DNA from: a virus
Lineage: Duplodnaviria; Heunggongvirae; Uroviricota; Caudoviricetes
Virus record (IMG/VR): IMGVR_UViG_2513237219_000004
Coordinates: 1 to 38,856 of that record
DNA length: 38,856 nt
Strand: one strand, 5' to 3'
The position numbers and the translations under genes were made by a program. The first letter of the stretch is position 1; each line of letters opens with the position of its first letter. The notes beneath the pieces are model-generated. The model did no database searches, was not told the origin of the DNA, and saw only the letters and a list, made by a program, of their open reading frames with translations. This document shows positions 1 through 38,856 of this stretch, piece after piece.

Positions 1-1305
1 CTATGCTTGTTTAATTACATCTGATCCCACAGCGTGGGGCATGGATGGGGCAAACTCACTCAATTTCTGGTTTAAAATGGATACCTGATCCTGATTGTTT
101 TCTGCCATCCACGATCCGTAAACGCGATAAACCATCTGAGCATCAGAGTGTCCCATTTGCTTCGCGATGAAGTTAGGGTTAGCTCCAGCGGTCAAAGACC
201 AACATGCATAAGTGTGCCTGGACTGATATGCTTTGCGGTAGCGAATCCCGGCGCGTCGCATTGCAGTTTCCCATGACTGATTAATCGACCCAACTGCATA
301 ATGGTACCCGGCAAGGCCATTACGCGTAACGATTTGCGGATTGAAAACAAAAGTGCATGGATGCATTTCAGTTCGACCATACTCACGAAGTTTCACTTCA
401 ACCTGATACTGCTTACCAAGCCGTGTCATTTCAGCCTGATTCTTAAGCACGTCTATTGCTGGTTGAATTAGGTTGATAACACGGTTTGTTCCCGCTTCGG
501 TTTTAGGAAGAGTGAACTCTTTCGTTAATGTGTGGTTTCTTCTGATCGTCATTGTCCCTGCCTTCAGGTCTATATCTTCCCATGCCAGAGAAACCAACTC
601 CCCGTGGCGAACTCCCGTATAAACAGCCAGTGACCACATATTTTTTAACTGCTGATGCTTAAATGCGTTAATCAACCTGACAAATTCATCACGGGTTAAC
701 GGATCAGGTTCCGTTCGTGATCTCTTCAGTTGCGAAATGGCTGCGAACGGATTTTCTTTGATGTATCCGCTGTCGGCTGCGAACTGAAACATCCCCGCCA
801 TGGTGTTCATGTAGTTATTAACAGTTGGCACGGAACGTCCCTTAATGGGTGTTTTTTGCCCACGTTTCAGAACATGATATCCGGTCAGCAAATCCTTTCG
901 TATGAACAGCAGTTCTTCCTGAGTCACAGCAGATGCAAGTCTGTTGCCTCCGATTCGGGGAACCATATTTCTTACAATGGAGCTGTAACGCCCCATCGCA
1001 TTGGTACTGATTTCCAGCTTTTTCAGATCCAGCCATTTCTCAGCCAGGTCTGCGACGGTAATTTCCTTACTTTCCGCACCAAATTTTCTCAGGTTGGGAG
1101 AGTCCGGAAACTGAGCGGCATAGTCGAAATTACCCGTCTTAATGGAAAAACAAACAGATGCTCGTAGCTCGCCAGCTATTTTCCTGTTTTTTGGTGTATC
1201 CGGCACACCGAGACTTTCCCGCACTCGTGTGCCTTTATACATGAACCATATGCGGAGTGATCCGCCATGGTTCTCAACGCCTGTTGGGTATGCTGTCTTA
1301 GCCAT
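1..1305 (-). CDS. int: Tyrosine integrase
   Basis: 434-aa ORF with C-terminal R..H..R..Y-type catalytic region (HTYACWSL...GHSDAQMVYRVYGSW); GGAGGG RBS before ATG at 1305; stop at position 1-3. Confidence 0.9.
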   Translation of the reverse strand: MAKTAYPTGVENHGGSLRIWFMYKGTRVRESLGVPDTPKNRKIAGELRASVCFSIKTGNFDYAAQFPDSPNLRKFGAESKEITVADLAEKWLDLKKLEISTNAMGRYSSIVRNMVPRIGGNRLASAVTQEELLFIRKDLLTGYHVLKRGQKTPIKGRSVPTVNNYMNTMAGMFQFAADSGYIKENPFAAISQLKRSRTEPDPLTRDEFVRLINAFKHQQLKNMWSLAVYTGVRHGELVSLAWEDIDLKAGTMTIRRNHTLTKEFTLPKTEAGTNRVINLIQPAIDVLKNQAEMTRLGKQYQVEVKLREYGRTEMHPCTFVFNPQIVTRNGLAGYHYAVGSINQSWETAMRRAGIRYRKAYQSRHTYACWSLTAGANPNFIAKQMGHSDAQMVYRVYGSWMAENNQDQVSILNQKLSEFAPSMPHAVGSDVIKQA

Positions 1306-7836: not shown

Positions 7837-8079
7837 TTACTTGCCGAGTGCCTTGTCGATGGCGGAACGAGCCATATCAAACTCATCTGTTTGACGGTCT
7901 GCTACTCTAACTACAGCCTGCAGAGCTTCCAGTAATTCAGGCGCTGCAGTAATGAGAGTCTTGTTTTCCTTGCTCGTCATTTCAAGTGGATATCCCTTTC
8001 CAAAGACTATGTGATGCTTGTTTCCCAAGCCCTCTTCATCCCAAAACCACGGACCGGGAGTTCCTTTAAATTCGCTCAT
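7837..8079 (-). CDS. Hypothetical protein (paralog of 8725..9021)
   Basis: 80-aa ORF with motif KGTPGPW ... [13 protein letters not shown] shared with the 8725..9021 product. Confidence 0.55.
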
Positions 8080-32530: not shown

Positions 32531-33826
32531 ATGGCTACGTGGCAAGGATCAAATGGCGGATTGTTAGCTGGTATCGGCGGCGTCAACTCAAACGCTCCGA
32601 GCGTAAATGACATCGGCAATACGCTTCAGCTTATCAGGCAGAACAATGATATTGAGCGTTCAGGCGCTAACAATGTTGGGCTGACTGCTTTGCAAGGTCT
32701 TTCAGGTATTGCAGGGGTGTTTCAGCAGGGAAAGCAGGCTCAGCGGCAGAAAGAATTTCAGCAGGCGTACGCTAATGCTTATGCGTCTGGTGATCGCGGT
32801 GCTTTGCGTCAGTTGGCTACTCAATATCCAGACCAGATTGAATCCGTTCGTAAAGGCATGGGATTCATTGATGAAGACCAGCGCAACTCTATCGGCACCT
32901 TAGCGGCTGGCGCTCGCCTTGCGTCATCATCTCCAGAAGCGATGCAATCATGGCTGCAAAACAACGCCAAGGAACTGACTCGCGTCGGTGTTGACCCTAA
33001 CAGCGTTGCTCAGATGTATCAGCAGAACCCTTCAGGATTTGGTGAGTTTGTTGATCACCTTGGAATGGCTGCTCTTGGTCCGATTGATTACTTCAATGTT
33101 CAGGACAAGATGGCAGGTCGTGAGATTGACCGAGGCAGGCTGGCAGAGACAATCCGCAGCAATCAGGCTGGAGAGGCGCTAACAGCGCGTGGTCAGGACA
33201 TCCAGATACGTGGACAGAACATCAGCGCACAGAATGCTGCTCTTTCCCGCGAAATACAAAGAGCAGAATTACAAGAAAAGGCTCTGGACAGACAAATAGC
33301 CAGAGAAAGCAATCAGTTAAAGCTTGAAGAGCTAAAACAGAAACAGGCAGATGTTCGGCAAAAGGCTGACATAGCCCGCGCTGACAGGCAGGCCGCCGCT
33401 CAGGGTGCAGTTGATACATTCAGCACCGCGCTTGATTCTCTCAACGAGATAGAGCAAAGCCCCGGCCTTTCAAAAGCAGTAGGAATTCGCTCAGCGTTTC
33501 CGACAGTTCCTGGCTCTGATGCAGCTAACTTTGAAGCAAGGCTCGACACCTTTAAAGCTCAAACATTCCTTCCTATGGTGCAGTCCCTTAAGGGTATGGG
33601 GGCTCTTTCAGATGCTGAGGGTAAAAAATTATCCGATGCGGTTGGTGCCCTAAGCCCCAAAATGAGTGAAAAGGCTTTTCGTGACTCTATCGGAAAGATT
33701 AGAAATCAGCTTGAAAGCAAGTTGAGCACTGTTAAAAAACAGTTTGATTATCAGGAGCCGGTGCAGAATATGCCAGGGCAACAATCTACTACTGGCAGTA
33801 ACTTTTCTTCACTATGGGGTGATTAA
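32531..33826 (+). CDS. Ejection protein (P22 gp20 type)
   Basis: 431 aa, position after gp7; coiled-coil rich. Confidence 0.75.
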   Translation: MATWQGSNGGLLAGIGGVNSNAPSVNDIGNTLQLIRQNNDIERSGANNVGLTALQGLSGIAGVFQQGKQAQRQKEFQQAYANAYASGDRGALRQLATQYPDQIESVRKGMGFIDEDQRNSIGTLAAGARLASSSPEAMQSWLQNNAKELTRVGVDPNSVAQMYQQNPSGFGEFVDHLGMAALGPIDYFNVQDKMAGREIDRGRLAETIRSNQAGEALTARGQDIQIRGQNISAQNAALSREIQRAELQEKALDRQIARESNQLKLEELKQKQADVRQKADIARADRQAAAQGAVDTFSTALDSLNEIEQSPGLSKAVGIRSAFPTVPGSDAANFEARLDTFKAQTFLPMVQSLKGMGALSDAEGKKLSDAVGALSPKMSEKAFRDSIGKIRNQLESKLSTVKKQFDYQEPVQNMPGQQSTTGSNFSSLWGD

Positions 33827-34185
33827 TGGCTAAAGCATGGAAAGATGTTATCGCCTCTCCACAGTATCAGGCGTTAGCACCAGAACAAAAAGCGCAGGCT
33901 CAGGAGCAATACTTCAATGAAGTCGTGGCCCCGCAAGCCGGAGAAAATGCAGAGCAGGCTAAGCAAGCTTTCTATGCTGCCTATCCATTGCCATCTGTGC
34001 AGACAGTGGAGACACAACAACCAGTATCACAGCAACAACCACAGCAAAGTGGATTTATGTCTGATCTTGGCGAAGCAGTAAAAGAGACTGGTCGCGGACT
34101 GGTGCAGGCTGGCGTGAACGTGGCAAACATACCTGCATCAGTTGCCGATGCTGTAACCAAGCGCGGCGGCTTGGGCTGGCGGTAA
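33826..34185 (+). CDS. Ejection protein gp16-like, N-terminal piece (frame 1)
   Basis: 119-aa ORF starting with TAATG overlap on gp20 stop; ends at TAA 34183..34185 while the next frame is already open from 34157. Confidence 0.55.
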   Translation: MAKAWKDVIASPQYQALAPEQKAQAQEQYFNEVVAPQAGENAEQAKQAFYAAYPLPSVQTVETQQPVSQQQPQQSGFMSDLGEAVKETGRGLVQAGVNVANIPASVADAVTKRGGLGWR

Positions 34186-34270
34186 ACTCGGTATTGGCGA
34201 TGGGACATATCAACCAGCACCACGAGTAACAACGCAGGGATTAGAGCAGGACTTTGGCCTTCAGCAAGGT

Positions 34271-35824
34271 GTGCTGACTCCACAAACGACAGAGGGAAGG
34301 GTATTTGCTGAAGCATTGCCTTACCTCACTCCTGCTGGCGTTGAGAGAGCGGCGGCACAGGCACCAACACTTGCTGGTCGAATTGCTCAGGGGGCAACTC
34401 GACTTCTCGCAGAAAACGCAGTTGGATCACTTGCTGCAAACAGTATGAAAGATGATGCGGAAGCACTCGCTACCGATTTAGGTGTTGGCGTTCTGGCAGG
34501 CGGCGCTATTAACGCTGCTGGACGTGGATTAGGTGCTGCTTATCGTGGCGTTCGCGGTGCTATTGCGCCAGAAGCGCAGCATGCTATCAGATTTGCAGAG
34601 CGTGAAGGAGTGCCTCTGCACACCACAGACCTGTTACAACCTACTTCCCGCGTCGGAAAAATGGCGCAAACGACAGCAGAAAATATCCCCCTGGCTGGCA
34701 CAAGCGGAATGAGAGCAACGCAACAGGAAGCGAGAAGCCAGTTGGTGCAGAGATTTGCTGATAAATTCGGTGAGTATGATCCAGCGGTTGTTATTGACAG
34801 CCTTAAAGCGAAAACATCAGGAATTCGTCGCGCCGCAGGAAATCGACTGGAGCAGGTTCAGAATGCCATGGCGGGAATAAACATTCAGCCTGCAAGAGCA
34901 ATTCAGCAGATTGATACAGAAATATCTAACCTGCAGAAGCTTGGTAAGGTTGCTGATAACGAGACTATTTCAAAACTTCAGTCCTATCGTGATGAGCTTG
35001 TTCGCAATGCTGGTCCTGATGGTCCGGTAAATCTGGATTTGAAGCAATTAAGCGATCTGCGCAGCCAGTTCAGAATGGACGTGAAGGGGGAGCGACCAGT
35101 GTTACCAAACCGTTCCGATGCTGCCATTCAGCGCGTTTACAAGGCAATGACCGACGATATCAATGGTGCCATTGGTCAGAATCTTGGCAACGATACTCTC
35201 CGTAAATATCAGCAAGCCAATGCCGTCTACGCTGACGAAGCGGCTAAACTAAAGAATACCAGGCTGAAGAATGTTCTCATGAAAGGCGACCTGACGCCGG
35301 AAGTTGTCAACAACATGCTATTCAGCAAGAACAAATCGGAAATTAAGACGCTGTATAACTCAGTTGGTCGTGTTGGCAGGGCGCAAATGCGCAATGGCAT
35401 CATTGGAAAGGCGATGGAGAAATCTGGCGGATCCCCTGACCAGTTCCTTCGGCAGCTTAATATCCTGCAAAACCAGACTGGCATCACATTTAAAGGTCAG
35501 GAAGCCGCTTATCTGAAAGGATTAAAAAACTACCTGCAATCCACGCAGCAGGCTGCAAAAGCGGCAATAACAACACCCACAGGGCAGCAAACTATCCCGT
35601 TCATTATTGGGTATGGGACGGCAATGAACCCGGCTACAACTGGCGCAGCAGTAAGCTACGGACTTCTTACTCGCGCCTATGAGAGCGAGCCATTCAGAAA
35701 TGCAATGCTCCGAATGGCAAACACCCCACGCGGATCGACAGCGTTTGAGAAAGCCATGCAGCAAGCGCAAAAAGCGATTAATGCACTGACGCAGGGTGCT
35801 AAGTCTGATTCGTTGTCAGAATAG
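34271..35824 (+). CDS. Ejection protein gp16-like, C-terminal piece (frame 2)
   Basis: 517-aa track ORF from a GTG without clear SD; its frame is open back to 34157 with no ATG, so it is probably the continuation of 33826..34185. Confidence 0.65.
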   Translation: MLTPQTTEGRVFAEALPYLTPAGVERAAAQAPTLAGRIAQGATRLLAENAVGSLAANSMKDDAEALATDLGVGVLAGGAINAAGRGLGAAYRGVRGAIAPEAQHAIRFAEREGVPLHTTDLLQPTSRVGKMAQTTAENIPLAGTSGMRATQQEARSQLVQRFADKFGEYDPAVVIDSLKAKTSGIRRAAGNRLEQVQNAMAGINIQPARAIQQIDTEISNLQKLGKVADNETISKLQSYRDELVRNAGPDGPVNLDLKQLSDLRSQFRMDVKGERPVLPNRSDAAIQRVYKAMTDDINGAIGQNLGNDTLRKYQQANAVYADEAAKLKNTRLKNVLMKGDLTPEVVNNMLFSKNKSEIKTLYNSVGRVGRAQMRNGIIGKAMEKSGGSPDQFLRQLNILQNQTGITFKGQEAAYLKGLKNYLQSTQQAAKAAITTPTGQQTIPFIIGYGTAMNPATTGAAVSYGLLTRAYESEPFRNAMLRMANTPRGSTAFEKAMQQAQKAINALTQGAKSDSLSE

Positions 35825-35914: not shown

Positions 35915-36400
35915 TTATCTGATGTTACTGCTACTGTTGCATGTTACCGTGTTTCCAAATCCTGAATTGCAGTTTGTATATGTGTCAACGCGTGTTGGGT
36001 AAGGTTGAGTTATAACAGGCTGGCGCGCTTTTTGCTCGATCGCTTGCATTGTGTTTACAGCCTGATAATTCAATAAAGCCTGCTGGAATGCTTGGCTTTG
36101 TGCTATTTGTTGGGCTTGTTCTTGGATTTGTAATTGAACATAAAGATTCTGAAGCTCAAGTCTTGCCTGTGCGTCACTTATCTTGCCTTCATCGACACCT
36201 TGCCCGAGCATCTTTGCAGCAAGGACATACAGCTTAGGTGTTGGTGCTGATGCCATGCGTGAGTCGTTCTTCACACTGGCATCAAGGCAATTAGCCATAT
36301 CGCTAAGCTTTTGATAGCGTTGTTCGCAACTTGCTTGATAGTCACTTACTTTTGCGCATCCAACCAGCAGAATCGGGATAATTAACAGTGATTTTTTCAT
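35915..36400 (-). CDS. Lipoprotein in the sieA/immI slot
   Basis: Track ORF 35915..36436 trimmed to ATG at 36400 after AAGGAG; signal peptide with lipobox LLVGC (MKKSLLIIPILLVGC); Gln-rich coiled-coil body. Confidence 0.7.
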   Translation of the reverse strand: MKKSLLIIPILLVGCAKVSDYQASCEQRYQKLSDMANCLDASVKNDSRMASAPTPKLYVLAAKMLGQGVDEGKISDAQARLELQNLYVQLQIQEQAQQIAQSQAFQQALLNYQAVNTMQAIEQKARQPVITQPYPTRVDTYTNCNSGFGNTVTCNSSSNIR

Positions 36401-36470
36401 ATGGTTAACTCTCCTTAGTTTTTCACAGGATATCATGAAGGCTATGCCATTTTAGCCGGAAACTAGATTT

Positions 36471-36737
36471 CTATGTTTCCTTTTTATTATTGCTATACAT
36501 GGTCTTAAGCGTATCAAAGACAATTTTCTTAACCATCTCAGATTGTTGTTCTGCTATACGCTCTGCATCGTCAATGTAAACGGATGCAGAGCTTTGTTTA
36601 GCCAATGATTCTTCAATCGCTGCAATTATCTCTGAGTTCAGCGATCTGTTATTCATCTTCGCACGCTGTTTAATTTTCGCGTGGAGTTCATGCGGAAGTC
36701 TCAAGTGAAACTGCGCCTCGTCGTATTTGCTGTACAT
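36471..36737 (-). CDS. mnt: Mnt-like ribbon-helix-helix repressor
   Basis: Internal ATG (MYSKYDEAQFHLRLPHELHAKIKQRAKMNNRSLNSE...DAERIAEQQSEMVKKIVFDTLK) resembles P22 Mnt by recall; GGTGAGG RBS. Confidence 0.75.
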   Translation of the reverse strand: MYSKYDEAQFHLRLPHELHAKIKQRAKMNNRSLNSEIIAAIEESLAKQSSASVYIDDAERIAEQQSEMVKKIVFDTLKTMYSNNKKET

Positions 36738-36810
36738 CCTTGATGCCTCACCAGTTGGGTGGAATGGCATCGTAACCTACTGGATAAATACTCAATAGTA
36801 CCATTTCGGT

Positions 36811-36833
36811 ATGCAATCACATCATGGTTGCAT
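36811..36833. promoter_or_regulatory. Candidate operator: inverted repeat ATGCAA-N11-TTGCAT
   Basis: Perfect 6-bp arms between the divergent mnt-like and tailspike genes. Confidence 0.3.
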
Positions 36834-36858
36834 CATATCATTCGTCTGGAGCAATGAA

Positions 36859-38856
36859 ATGTCAGATATCACCGCAAATGTTGTGGTAAGCATGCCTTCG
36901 CAACTCTTCACTATGGCTCGTTCTTTTAAAGCCGTAGCTAATGGAAAGATTTATATCGGAAAAATTGACACTGACCCGGTAAATCCTGAAAACCAGATTC
37001 AGGTTTATGTGGAGAACGAAGACGGCTCTCACGTTCCTGTATCGCAACCAATCATCATTAACGCTGCTGGTTACCCCGTATACAACGGACAGATTGCCAA
37101 GTTTGTAACTGTGCAAGGCCATTCTATGGCTGTTTATGATGCGTACGGTGCGCAGCAGTTCTATTTTCCTAATGTGCTGAAGTATGACCCGGATCAGTTA
37201 AGGCAAGAACTTTTAAGTTCAGATGATGGGCTTGGTGATTCATTAATCACAGTAAAACAACCTTTAATTAATTCTACAAAACGAACACAGCATGATAAAA
37301 ATGCAGAGAATATTAGTATTCTTGATTTTGTAAAACATGAAGATGTTAGCGACATTGTTAATGGCAATATTGACGCAACACACATATTTTCCTATGCATC
37401 TTCAGTTTCACCTGACGGTGTTTATGTTCCACAAGGTACTTATTTAATTGATGGCTATATTAATGGAAAATTTTATGGCCCTGGTAAAATAATACAAAGT
37501 AAAGGAGACGAACCTATTCCATTTGCAAATCCTGCTCAGACAATTGGAAATGTTTTTTTGGGTTTTGATGCTGGCAAGCTATATAATGGAAATGATATAT
37601 CTGGGCAAGTTGTTGCGATTGGACCAAGTGCTGGAAGAAACATTAGCACGGGCAATAACATTACAGCAATTGGGACAGGTGTATTATCAGGTGATACCCT
37701 TCAAGACGATCTCACAGATACATCGCCATGTACTGGCACTGAGATTGTAGCAATTGGTGTGAATGCGTGCAAAAAAGCAACCACAGCTAGTAACATAATT
37801 GGAATTGGGCGCGATGCCCTAAATGAAAATAAAGAAGGAAATTTTAATGTTGCAGTAGGATCAAGTGCATTACAACAACTTCATACTGGTAGTGGTAATG
37901 TTGCAATAGGTCGAGCGGCTGGAATGCGAGCTGGAATTGTTACAGACCAATCAGGCAAAAGGTTGTCTTATAACATTCTAAATAATAACACATTTATAGG
38001 CAATGCATCCGGAAGGGAGATTACAAATGGAGATAACAATACATATATTGGTAGCGGATCAGGAAGAGGGATTTCTTCTATAGATAACCCTTATACAGGC
38101 ACATCTACAGGTATGAATAATGTCGCAGTAGGAGCCGACTCACTTAATTCTATTGGTTCGGCAAGTAACAATGTAATGCTTGGATATAGATCTGGTAGAT
38201 CGTTAAGCTCTGGAACAGGTAATATATTTATCGGAACCAATGCTGGTTCGGCAATTTCTTCAGGTGACAACCAATTAATAATTGCTAATCAGAGCGGGCT
38301 CCCTTTTTTGAGTGGGTTGATGGGACCTGTTTCTGATGAGAATAATTATGCTCGTTTTGATGCGTCGGTACAACCAGCAACAGATAACGCTAGAAATTGC
38401 GGTTCAGCATCCAGAAGGTGGAATACAATATTTGCTGGCACTTCAACGATTAACACATCGGATGGTCGAGTTAAGACTGATAAAAGACCGATTACTGATG
38501 CAGAGAGACGTGTTGCATATAAAATAAAGGGTTTGGTTTGTTGTTTTAGATTTATAGATTCAGTAATTGAAAAAGGAGAAAATGCTAGATTACATTTTGG
38601 CATTATTGCCCAAGATGTATATAAAGCATTTGCTGAAGAAGGGCTTGATGCAAACGACTATGGTCTTTTTTGCTATGATAAATGGGAAACTGAATACGAA
38701 CCAGTAATTGCTAAAAAGATAATTTTTGATGAAGAATCCGGTGATGAAAAATTAATTGAATATGATACTGGAGAACGCAGAATATCTATAGAAGGGGGTG
38801 AGCGATATGGAATAAGATATGAAGAATTATTATGTTTTATAATATCTGCAATATAA
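36859..38856 (+). CDS. Tailspike: P22 gp9-like head-binding domain + Gly-rich repeat receptor-binding region + C-terminal intramolecular chaperone (S74-like)
   Basis: Internal ATG of track ORF 36811..38856; [47 protein letters not shown]... matches P22 gp9 N-terminus; C-terminus SDGRVKTD...[24 protein letters not shown] resembles S74 chaperone domains; distal two thirds AT-rich. Confidence 0.85.

Follow-up and report, generated by a model that had tools for sequence, protein, structure and literature searches.

The gene that ends at the final base of the analysed DNA (the window, a whole stretch of 38,856 nt) encodes a real, well-supported and mostly ordinary modular tailspike, and the new point is the predicted fold of its repeat region. 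The explanation we consider best, and hold to be quite probable as a whole, is that a P22-like (Lederbergvirus-type) prophage of E. coli P12b makes the product as its receptor-binding spike, a homotrimer, and that from about residue 115 onwards the protein is a mobile AT-rich module, joined by recombination where the head-binding domain ends and bringing with it a left-handed solenoid and a self-cleaving chaperone. Behind the head-binding domain, the proposed order of parts would be a short neck, a helical cap, a solenoid of about 250 residues built from ~17-residue repeats, a short trimeric stalk and the chaperone.

The tailspike gene and its genomic setting

36859..38856, + strand: tailspike gene (665 aa, 71.0 kDa), an ORF whose stop codon ends at the final base of the window
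36848..36851, + strand: Shine-Dalgarno sequence GGAG, 7 nt ahead of the ATG; homology with two other prophage copies begins at 36845

In E. coli P12b (O15:H17), the window is a prophage of the P22 type, and its sequence matches genomes of the Sf6/HK620/IME10 type. Upstream of the gene lie homologues of P22 gp7, gp20 and gp16 (P22_gp7, Inj_translocase and P22_gp16 directly upstream) and a Mnt/Arc repressor, showing that the spike N-terminus stands in a P22-type tail setting. The in-frame ATG at 36811 was considered as an alternative start and rejected. Scanning for promoters and terminators around the gene gave nothing better than shuffled sequences, and no NCBIfam family was found for the whole tailspike protein. 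An identical protein is already deposited in NCBI under the name "phage tailspike protein". This public record goes beyond what the initial annotation contained, as do the left-handed solenoid prediction and the CUS-3 precedent described below.

The gene could also be read as the decaying remnant of a defective prophage that yields no functional spike. Such decay would suit the upstream gp16 homologue, which is split in this copy, that of CP002291, by a 1-nt insertion, as well as the presence of the module in only 1 of 5,426 complete RefSeq E. coli genomes. Against it, the 665-codon ORF is intact behind a good Shine-Dalgarno sequence, and the tailspike was identical in three assemblies and falls in a cluster of 52 members with nearly constant lengths. 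Between two lysogens, only about 1 of the 9 nucleotide differences in the module alters an amino acid, the rest being synonymous, and all catalytic and near-invariant residues are kept. Given an intact, conserved ORF, the pseudogene reading was rejected; its probability is practically negligible. Judged from accession pairs, one NCTC genome may carry two prophages with this spike.

A P22-type head-binding domain with a nested junction

36859..37197, + strand: P22-type head-binding (virion attachment) domain, residues 1-113, recognised by Pfam PF09008 and by the N-termini of P22 gp9 and Sf6 gp14 in the PDB
37198..37320, + strand: neck/linker, residues 114-154, common to Sf6-type and some prophage tailspikes, with nested recombination end points
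37321..37521, + strand: helical cap at the N-terminal side of the receptor-binding domain (ISILDF...VYVPQGTY), residues 155-221; the corresponding part of homologues matches PF12708 over its first ~50 positions

The initial annotation had assigned the first ~115 residues to the P22 gp9 head-binding domain and held the remainder to be unrelated to the P22 endorhamnosidase, and both statements were borne out. PF09008 matched over its full length (residues 1-113 against profile positions 1-113 of 113, E 1.2e-67, 225.7 bits, with a curated cut-off of 24 bits), and N-terminal structures of P22 gp9 matched at E 6e-51 with ~70-75% identity. Similarity to the full-length P22 tailspike chains 2xc1 and 8tvr was confined to residues 1-115. 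As in P22 and Sf6, residues 1-113 would attach the spike to the tail hub of the phage.

The N-terminus of Sf6 gp14 was 87-89% identical to the head-binding domain, and its protein similarity extended further, to about residue 180-209. At the DNA level, homology with 28 P22-like phages ended at gene nt 339-350, and some prophage tailspike genes were homologous up to gene nt 381 or 472. The extended Sf6 similarity and the longer prophage homology together indicated a nested junction, not a single clean cut at residue 115.

The receptor module is a mobile compositional outlier

A chimeric tailspike had been proposed, with a foreign receptor-binding part newly acquired as a host-range module and a sharp drop to AT-rich composition after ~37200. 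The GC calculation across the gene showed a clearly non-uniform composition. In a genome of GC 0.479, codons 1-115 had a GC of 0.443 and a GC3 of 0.452, and codons 116-665 had a GC of 0.370 and a GC3 of 0.198. The maximum-likelihood change point of GC3 fell after codon 115, at nt 37204, and the lowest-GC segment of 1653 nt in the whole genome starts at 37201. Homologous modules elsewhere match the GC of their own genomes (0.51, 0.44 and 0.41), whereas the copy studied here has a GC of 0.37 in a genome of 0.48, indicating that it is a genuine compositional outlier.

The module was found at 99.5-99.7% DNA identity in three P22-like prophage backbones, namely the window, SJC33 and IMG/VR 2513237219. 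Across these three, homology starts only 14 nt before the ATG, the DNA further upstream is unrelated, and the first 207 nt of the gene diverge by ~9-11%. A near-identical module in three backbones with unrelated upstream DNA shows its acquisition by recombination directly, and the proposal of an acquired host-range module was thus supported by homology as well as by composition. More distant relatives of the module, at 46-67% identity, lie behind Head_binding, Tail_spike_N and other adaptors, and are carried by a prophage of siphovirus type, an epsilon15-like one and a Vectrevirus (SP6-like). It is textbook phage biology that receptor parts are exchanged while the P22 head-binding domain ahead of them is conserved, and the tailspike adds one more well-documented example, in which the composition and homology breakpoints are unusually clean.

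A C-terminal chaperone with a putative Ser-Lys dyad

38284..38457, + strand: stalk ahead of the cleavage site, residues 476-533; over residues 501-533 there is a weak match to the C-terminal end of Pfam End_tail_spike
38458..38853, + strand: intramolecular chaperone / Peptidase_S74, residues 534-665, 15.2 kDa, supported by Pfam, PDB relatives and predicted fold
38458..38475, + strand: S534-D-G-R-V-K539, putative catalytic Ser-Lys dyad from alignment and conservation, with predicted cleavage immediately before S534

The C-terminus had been compared to self-cleaving intramolecular chaperones, and the Peptidase_S74 domain search confirmed a significant similarity. PF13884 matched residues 534-596 (E 4.5e-10, 40.1 bits, with a gathering cut-off of 22 bits), and the relatives in the PDB were 7y5s (2.9e-23), 3gud (5.7e-17), 3gw6 (7.6e-15) and 4uw8 (1.5e-13). 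The predicted model has the chaperone fold of a helical bundle with a beta tentacle, and the S-x4-K dyad of Peptidase_S74 stands at the start of the domain. In 51 homologues, S534, D535 and K539 were at least 90% conserved. They line up with the known cleavage-site residues: S534 falls opposite the first residue of the GA-1 chaperone as released (3gud) and opposite the Ala of 3gw6, the endoNF construct, and the counterpart of K539 is a Lys in all the PDB chains compared.

In the assembly that we propose, the chaperone would trimerise first and nucleate the folding of the stalk and the solenoid, and self-cleavage catalysed by Ser534 and Lys539 would remove it. Autocleavage at this site is predicted to leave a mature spike of 533 aa and 55.8 kDa. 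The stalk had low confidence in the monomer model, as expected of an intertwined trimeric segment.

The repeat region is predicted to form a left-handed beta-solenoid

37522..38283, + strand: repeat region, residues 222-475, with 12 repeats of ~17 aa (N-x-x-[VIL]-G-x-x-[AS]-x...); predicted left-handed beta-solenoid

The Gly/Asn-rich repeats that the initial annotation had pointed out were resolved into 12 copies with a period of ~17 in residues 231-475, and shuffles (n = 20,000) never reached their motif counts. N[VIT]x[VILA]G occurred 9 times against 0.12 expected (0/20,000 shuffles), and the hexapeptide-like [LIV]Gxx[STAV]x occurred 13 times against 2.8 expected (0/20,000), always within residues 234-463. 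Residues 221-500 contain 15.7% G, 12.1% N and 11.1% S, and conserved charged residues from D237 to R403 recur at a fixed offset in successive repeats, with R260, K305/K306, E323, H342, R357 and R386/E387 forming a conserved ladder.

By phmmer, residues 221-533 had no match in the PDB at E <= 10, and a profile of 11 homologues gave one chance match there (E 2). Searches of this region against Pfam at E <= 1 and E <= 10 returned End_tail_spike on the stalk as the sole match, and nothing on the repeats, Hep_Hag included. PDB 9vvr was considered as a match to residues 263-659 and rejected, its envelope being driven by the C-terminal part.

The AF2 monomer had a pLDDT mostly >90 over residues 290-500 and low confidence over residues 222-260 and 500-533; the domain-only model reached a pTM of 0.73, and the full-length and domain-only AlphaFold models agreed. 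Left-handed structures superposed on the model at 2.7-4.6 Å, and structural alignments with adhesin heads gave 18-27% identity. In a Foldseek search with the full-length model, hits to the two terminal domains prevailed. With the domain only, Foldseek listed left-handed helices and the BoaA head, none of them significant (best E 0.26). These models suggested that the repeat region coils into a left-handed beta-solenoid whose nearest counterparts are trimeric autotransporter adhesin heads (YadA, UspA1), and that three such chains most likely form three parallel left-handed beta-rolls, as in those heads. A literature search on left-handed helices in tailspikes found nothing relevant.

The central domain might instead be a right-handed parallel beta-helix of the conventional kind, a depolymerase (glycosidase or lyase) resembling those of P22, Sf6, HK620 and most tailspikes, in which case the AlphaFold model would be wrong. 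Two observations on homologues count against the left-handed reading: most of them match PF12708 (right-handed, pectate-lyase-like), and some are named "glycosyl hydrolase family 28-related" by NCBI. The PF12708 match is limited to the first ~50 profile positions, which correspond to the cap, with a long hit in the single exception P0127. The tailspike itself had no PF12708 or PF13229 match at E <= 1. Right-handed depolymerases superposed on the model at 10-16 Å, against the much closer fit of left-handed structures, and no right-handed helix appeared among the Foldseek matches, both results holding only as far as the model is correct. The usual three-stranded right-handed coil takes ~22 or more residues per turn, and the 17-residue turn is too short for it. 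The hexapeptide-like motif is moreover typical of left-handed helices. A right-handed depolymerase is therefore unlikely.

The repeats could also form an intertwined trimeric fibre shaft, a triple beta-helix folded by the chaperone, with receptor contact confined to a small distal site; the compact monomer model would then be an artefact. Triple beta-helices are among the known clients of S74 chaperones (Schulz et al. 2010, as cited in PMC8217332). The same repeats occur in giant S74-ending proteins of 1,000-5,800 aa that resemble long fibres, and monomer prediction is unable to represent intertwined folds. Against such a shaft stand the compact single-chain solenoid predicted at high pLDDT by two concordant models, the identity reached in the adhesin-head alignments, and the fixed repeat offset of the conserved charged residues, as for one face of a solenoid. 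We regard the shaft as quite improbable.

Should the left-handed solenoid be correct, it might still be a hexapeptide-repeat enzyme (LpxA or NeuO type) or a derived esterase that modifies a surface glycan instead of only binding it, perhaps taking off or attaching O-acetyl groups where the subunits meet. The tailspike had no Pfam Hexapep match. Acyltransferases require acyl-CoA, which is absent outside the cell, and we know of no esterase with a left-handed solenoid fold. Such an enzyme seems very improbable.

Receptor and host range

In the preferred reading, the solenoid would bind a host cell-surface structure, most probably a polysaccharide, and thereby set the host range. E. coli P12b belongs to serogroup O15 (PMC548302), and the SJC33 lysogen carries an O-antigen locus of the O7 family. 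With one lysogen of O15 and the other of the O7 family, a simple O-antigen receptor is unsupported, and the idea that the spike targets the O antigen of its lysogen is weakened by these two discordant lysogens (n = 2). The only receptor clue from relatives was that Vectrevirus CC1 and CC2 infect the ST131 strain EC958.

A more specific proposal, which we consider rather unlikely, is that the spike is a non-enzymatic, adhesin-type trimer of left-handed beta-rolls, the viral equivalent of YadA/UspA1 heads, folded by the S74 chaperone, and that its receptor is not O-specific, for instance a conserved enterobacterial glycan or a protein. If true, it would explain lysogens of both O15 and the O7 family, as well as the relatives at 46-67% identity in phages of Enterobacter, Raoultella, Erwiniaceae and E. 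marmotae, and this would be the first P22-family phage to reach the outer membrane without an O-antigen-degrading spike. To our knowledge, the characterised P22-family spikes are all enzymes, so that a purely adhesive spike would be atypical. The usual rule is that a Lederbergvirus spike predicts the O type of its host; one module in different O serogroups questions this rule, and bears on spike-based serotype prediction and on phage engineering.

The fibre family of the receptor module comprises 11,559 clusters at 50% identity, with an S74 chaperone at the end of the members checked, and it has neither a Pfam model nor a solved structure. The adhesin-type reading, if true, would assign a fold and a role to this very large uncharacterised family. 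Were its structure and its receptor determined, the spike of this E. coli prophage, which is easy to cultivate, would serve to annotate the entire family.

Comparison with known systems

The spikes of P22 (gp9), Sf6 (gp14) and HK620 share the head-binding domain at 70-89% identity, and Sf6 also shares the neck and the start of the receptor domain to ~180-209. Their genes hold the same position, at the end of the tail/ejection operon beside an immI-type repressor. Their receptor domains, in contrast, belong to the right-handed beta-helix endoglycosidases and lack an S74 chaperone; they have no sequence similarity past the neck, and the spikes superpose on the tailspike model only at 17-21 Å rmsd. 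The predicted left-handed, adhesin-head-like fold would thus depart from every characterised P22-family spike.

The chaperones of GA-1 gp12, T5 pb1 and Klebsiella phage Kp7 agree with the C-terminus in sequence, predicted fold, the S-D-x-R-x-K dyad and the H-F-G-x-I-A-Q motif. A beta-hairpin insertion at ~604-650 is missing from shorter versions such as that of Vectrevirus G3A1_048, and nothing essential differs.

The heads of the adhesins YadA, UspA1, BpaC, BoaA and CbpF have 14-residue repeats, compared with ~17 here, and the left-handed parallel beta-roll of YadA-like heads is present in the predicted fold. Unlike autotransporter adhesins, the tailspike lacks both a membrane anchor and a signal peptide and would be folded by the S74 domain instead of exported by autotransport. 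The period of 17 and the S74 C-terminus without an anchor indicate that it is not a trimeric autotransporter adhesin, the head likeness lying in the predicted fold alone.

A YadA-like segment followed by S74 has been described in T7-like tail fibres of pelagiphages (Mizuno et al. 2014, PMC3909814), which show the same predicted combination of adhesin-head-like repeats and Peptidase_S74 in a podovirus fibre. Fibres of Pelagibacter and Roseobacter phages were 27-38% identical to the repeat region. The pelagiphage fibres differ in their adaptor, a T7 fibre N-terminus, and in their hosts, and are likewise uncharacterised. The closest relatives among phage isolates were the second tailspike of Vectrevirus vB_EcoP-G3A1, 101117UKE2, CC1 and CC2 and that of Raoultella phage vB_Ro_P3a, with ~50% amino-acid identity to the receptor module over residues 131-608. 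These relatives differ in being lytic and SP6/K1E-like, with a short N-terminal adaptor and a gene GC equal to that of the phage (0.44).

The precedent for the architecture of the tailspike is the P22-like coliphage CUS-3. Its endosialidase tailspike, like the K1F endoNF, joins a P22-type head-binding domain to a foreign module for receptor binding, with a self-cleaving intramolecular chaperone at the C-terminus. The CUS-3 gene was 91.7% identical in DNA to the head-binding part, and the endoNF chaperone 3gw6 matched residues 500-656. The receptor part of CUS-3 and K1F combines a sialidase beta-propeller and a lectin domain, whereas the tailspike has a repeat solenoid without a sialidase signature, and its similarity to the endosialidase family is limited to the last 33 positions of End_tail_spike.

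The tailspike gene and its surroundings

Genome matches showed the window to be a P22-like prophage of the Sf6/HK620/IME10 type, extending from an integrase (1..1305, minus strand) at one end to the tailspike gene at the other. Its final 6 kb are present verbatim in Escherichia coli P12b (CP002291.1; accession given in PMC3378880), the O15:H17 reference strain (PMC548302). The features at this end are as follows.

33826..35824, gene for a P22 gp16-type ejection protein, broken by one extra C (at about 34157-34158) into two ORFs, of 119 aa and 517 aa
35915..36436, minus strand, ORF of 161-173 aa with a lipoprotein-like signal (LLVGC), a Gln-rich centre and GC of about 0.42
36471..36770, minus strand, Arc/Mnt-family repressor gene (99 aa), divergent from the tailspike gene
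36859..38856, plus strand, tailspike ORF (665 aa); the last base of the window ends its stop codon
P12b chromosome (L014) 7999..8070, beyond the window and directly 3' of the tailspike stop, imperfect inverted repeat GGCACAAAGCTTTGCAC ... TGCAATGCTTTGTGCA

A Shine-Dalgarno GGAG lies 7 nt 5' of the tailspike ATG. A longer in-frame ORF from 36811 was considered as the start and rejected, because every homologue begins M-[ST]-D-I. The identical protein is already public (AFG39992.1 / WP_001280409.1, "phage tailspike protein"), and database entries annotate both terminal domains.

The gp16-type frameshift reflects either faulty sequencing of CP002291 or a genuine lesion, and the latter would render the prophage non-infectious; NCTC assembly UGBH01000002.1 has a copy that differs in nothing else and is intact (665 aa). 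The ORF at 35915..36436 gave no family match above chance level, is kept in all three assemblies carrying the prophage, and lies at a position that superinfection-exclusion or moron genes take up in P22-like phages. The window has no arc-ant pair between the Arc/Mnt repressor gene and the tailspike, whereas the prophage of the chicken isolate SJC33 has arc, arc, ant there; the immI region is therefore reduced. The inverted repeat may be the terminator of the tailspike gene, or it may belong to the attachment site.

The tailspike combines a P22-type head-binding domain with a chaperone-bearing module

The initial annotation had described a P22 gp9 head-binding N-terminus of about 115 residues, a remainder unrelated to the P22 endorhamnosidase, and a C-terminal module resembling self-cleaving chaperones, and the domain searches bore out each part. 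In Pfam, Head_binding was complete at residues 1-113 (E 1.2e-67) and Peptidase_S74 matched residues 534-596 (E 4.5e-10; score 40.1 bits, cut-off 22), with a sub-threshold match of the last 33 positions of End_tail_spike to residues 501-533. Among PDB sequences, P22 gp9 and Sf6 gp14 matched the N-terminus only, up to residue 115 and about residue 209, respectively, and the C-terminus matched five chaperone-bearing fibres (Kp7 fibre 7y5s, GA-1 gp12 3gud, endoNF 3gw6, T5 pb1 4uw8, and 6eu4). S534 aligned with the residue at which the released GA-1 domain starts and, in the 3gw6 chain, with Ala, and the K539 position is Lys in all aligned chaperone chains. Conservation of S534, D535 and K539 is at least 90% in 51 homologues.

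The repeat region is predicted to form a left-handed solenoid

Residues 155-533 matched no Pfam, NCBIfam or PDB family by any sequence method used. The Gly/Asn-rich region seen at first reading was confirmed as 12 repeats of period 17, with motif counts far above chance (reached in 0 of 20,000 shuffles), and no Pfam family covers the 17-residue repeat. When all 1.84 billion representatives were scanned, 11,559 related clusters emerged at E <= 1e-3. Many are giants of 1,000-5,800 aa (P0121-P0262), likewise built from the 17-residue repeat, in which as many as 20 stretches matched. Peptidase_S74 stood at the C-terminal end in five of the six related proteins examined. The giant proteins P0121 and P0125 terminate in this domain; the repeat-related P0132 (1,500 aa) had no Pfam match.

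AlphaFold2, run with a 51-sequence alignment, gave a mean pLDDT of 78, mostly above 90 at residues 290-500, and a domain-only model with pTM 0.73. Left-handed beta-helix enzymes, LpxA and QdtC among them, superpose on the model at 3.2-4.6 A, and right-handed tailspike depolymerases only at 10-16 A rmsd, which we read as a shared distance pattern rather than shared hand. Foldseek with the domain model returned no significant match (best E 0.26), and its weak matches were left-handed helices and the BoaA YadA-like head (probability 0.89). The sequence itself, apart from any model, shows a hexapeptide-like motif ([LIV]-G-x-x-[STAV]-x) in every repeat; its 13 copies all fall within residues 234-463. 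Taken together, the superpositions, the weak matches and the motif indicate that residues 222-475 are probably a left-handed solenoid. It is preceded by a helical cap (residues 155-221), whose equivalents in homologues match the start of Pfam PF12708.

In the 21 closest homologues, D237, R260, D279, D283, E295, K305, K306, D319, E323, K325, H342, R352, R357, R368, R386 and E387 are invariant. Several of these charged residues keep a constant offset across successive repeats, as expected for a single solenoid face; such a face might act as a binding groove or lie between subunits.

The module is mobile and probably arrived comparatively recently

DNA similarity to 28 P22-like phages stops at gene nt 339-350, and in some E. 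coli prophages it runs to nt 381 or 472. A nested recombination zone therefore spans the neck and the end of the head-binding domain. The whole gene was found in one of 5,426 complete RefSeq E. coli genomes, that of SJC33, whose copy differs from the window's at 23 positions across nt 1-207 and at 9 across nt 208-1998; the IMG/VR 2513237219 prophage has 18 and 5 mismatches, respectively. Among these three prophages, shared homology begins just 14 nt 5' of the ATG, and the genes upstream are unrelated.

Relatives of residues 116-665 (46-67% identity) follow varied adaptors, such as Head_binding and Tail_spike_N, and occur in a siphovirus-type prophage (tape-measure gene, NlpC/P60), an epsilon15-like prophage and lytic Vectrevirus phages. 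The closest phage-isolate homologue, G3A1_048 of Vectrevirus vB_EcoP-G3A1 (L002 3968..5491), carries no annotation beyond "hypothetical protein"; its chaperone domain is shorter and lacks the beta-hairpin insertion that the window protein has at about residues 604-650.

The 90%-identity cluster of the tailspike holds 52 sequences. Two of them, STH06750.1 and STH05357.1, share one 4.98-Mb contig (NCTC assembly GCA_900448865.1), and therefore a single strain appears to hold two P22-like prophages with near-identical receptor modules and differing head-binding 5' ends, a setting in which co-resident prophages could undergo gene conversion. HAH9629343.1 and HAH9629160.1 are a similar pair.

The sharp AT-rich shift noticed after about 37200, and the recent acquisition it suggested, agreed with the computed composition. 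GC3 falls from 0.452 in codons 1-115 to 0.198 thereafter, the likelihood change point lies after codon 115 (nt 37204), and the lowest-GC 1653-nt stretch of the genome (GC 0.479) begins at 37201. Modules of the relatives match local GC (0.51 vs 0.53 in flanks, 0.44 vs 0.43, 0.41 vs 0.44), and that of the window stands at 0.37 vs 0.48 for its genome. These values speak for a comparatively recent acquisition from a source of lower GC.

Proposed mechanism and receptor

Domain order, the Ser-Lys dyad and module mobility were observed directly; the mechanism beyond them draws on the established behaviour of these families, namely the P22 and Sf6 tail structures (PMC9728967) and the chaperone work of Schwarzer 2007 and Schulz 2010 (both via citation in PMC8217332). 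The N-terminal domains would form a trimer and insert into the hub of the tail. At the C-terminus, the chaperone would trimerise, template the stalk and solenoid, and then cleave itself off before S534, so that a mature chain of 55.8 kDa remains and a fragment of 15.2 kDa is released. The solenoid would bind the host surface.

A Lederbergvirus spike is normally expected to match the O antigen of its lysogen (PMC10408124). In the two typable lysogens on which the comparison rests, such a match was not borne out, and this should be read with caution: P12b is O15 (PMC548302), and the SJC33 locus (L017 8411..24062; rfbBDAC, wzx, vioA, vioB, wzy, manC, manB) is O7-family. One spike module is thus found in hosts of different O serogroups. 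As to whether the spike degrades its ligand, the modelled fold favours an adhesin, and the conserved acidic residues, together with precedent in the family, favour an enzyme. That the spike is a non-enzymatic, serotype-independent adhesin seems to us improbable.

Comparison with known systems

A direct precedent for this architecture is the endosialidase spike of CUS-3, a P22-like phage that is itself among the head-domain DNA matches. In pelagiphages, a profile search reported in 2014 had picked out podovirus fibres with a YadA-like segment and S74 (PMC3909814). Together with the existing database entries, these make the tailspike a further member, itself uncharacterised, of an already known architecture. 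Its one potentially unexpected feature is the prediction that a P22-family virion carries a left-handed solenoid resembling adhesin heads.
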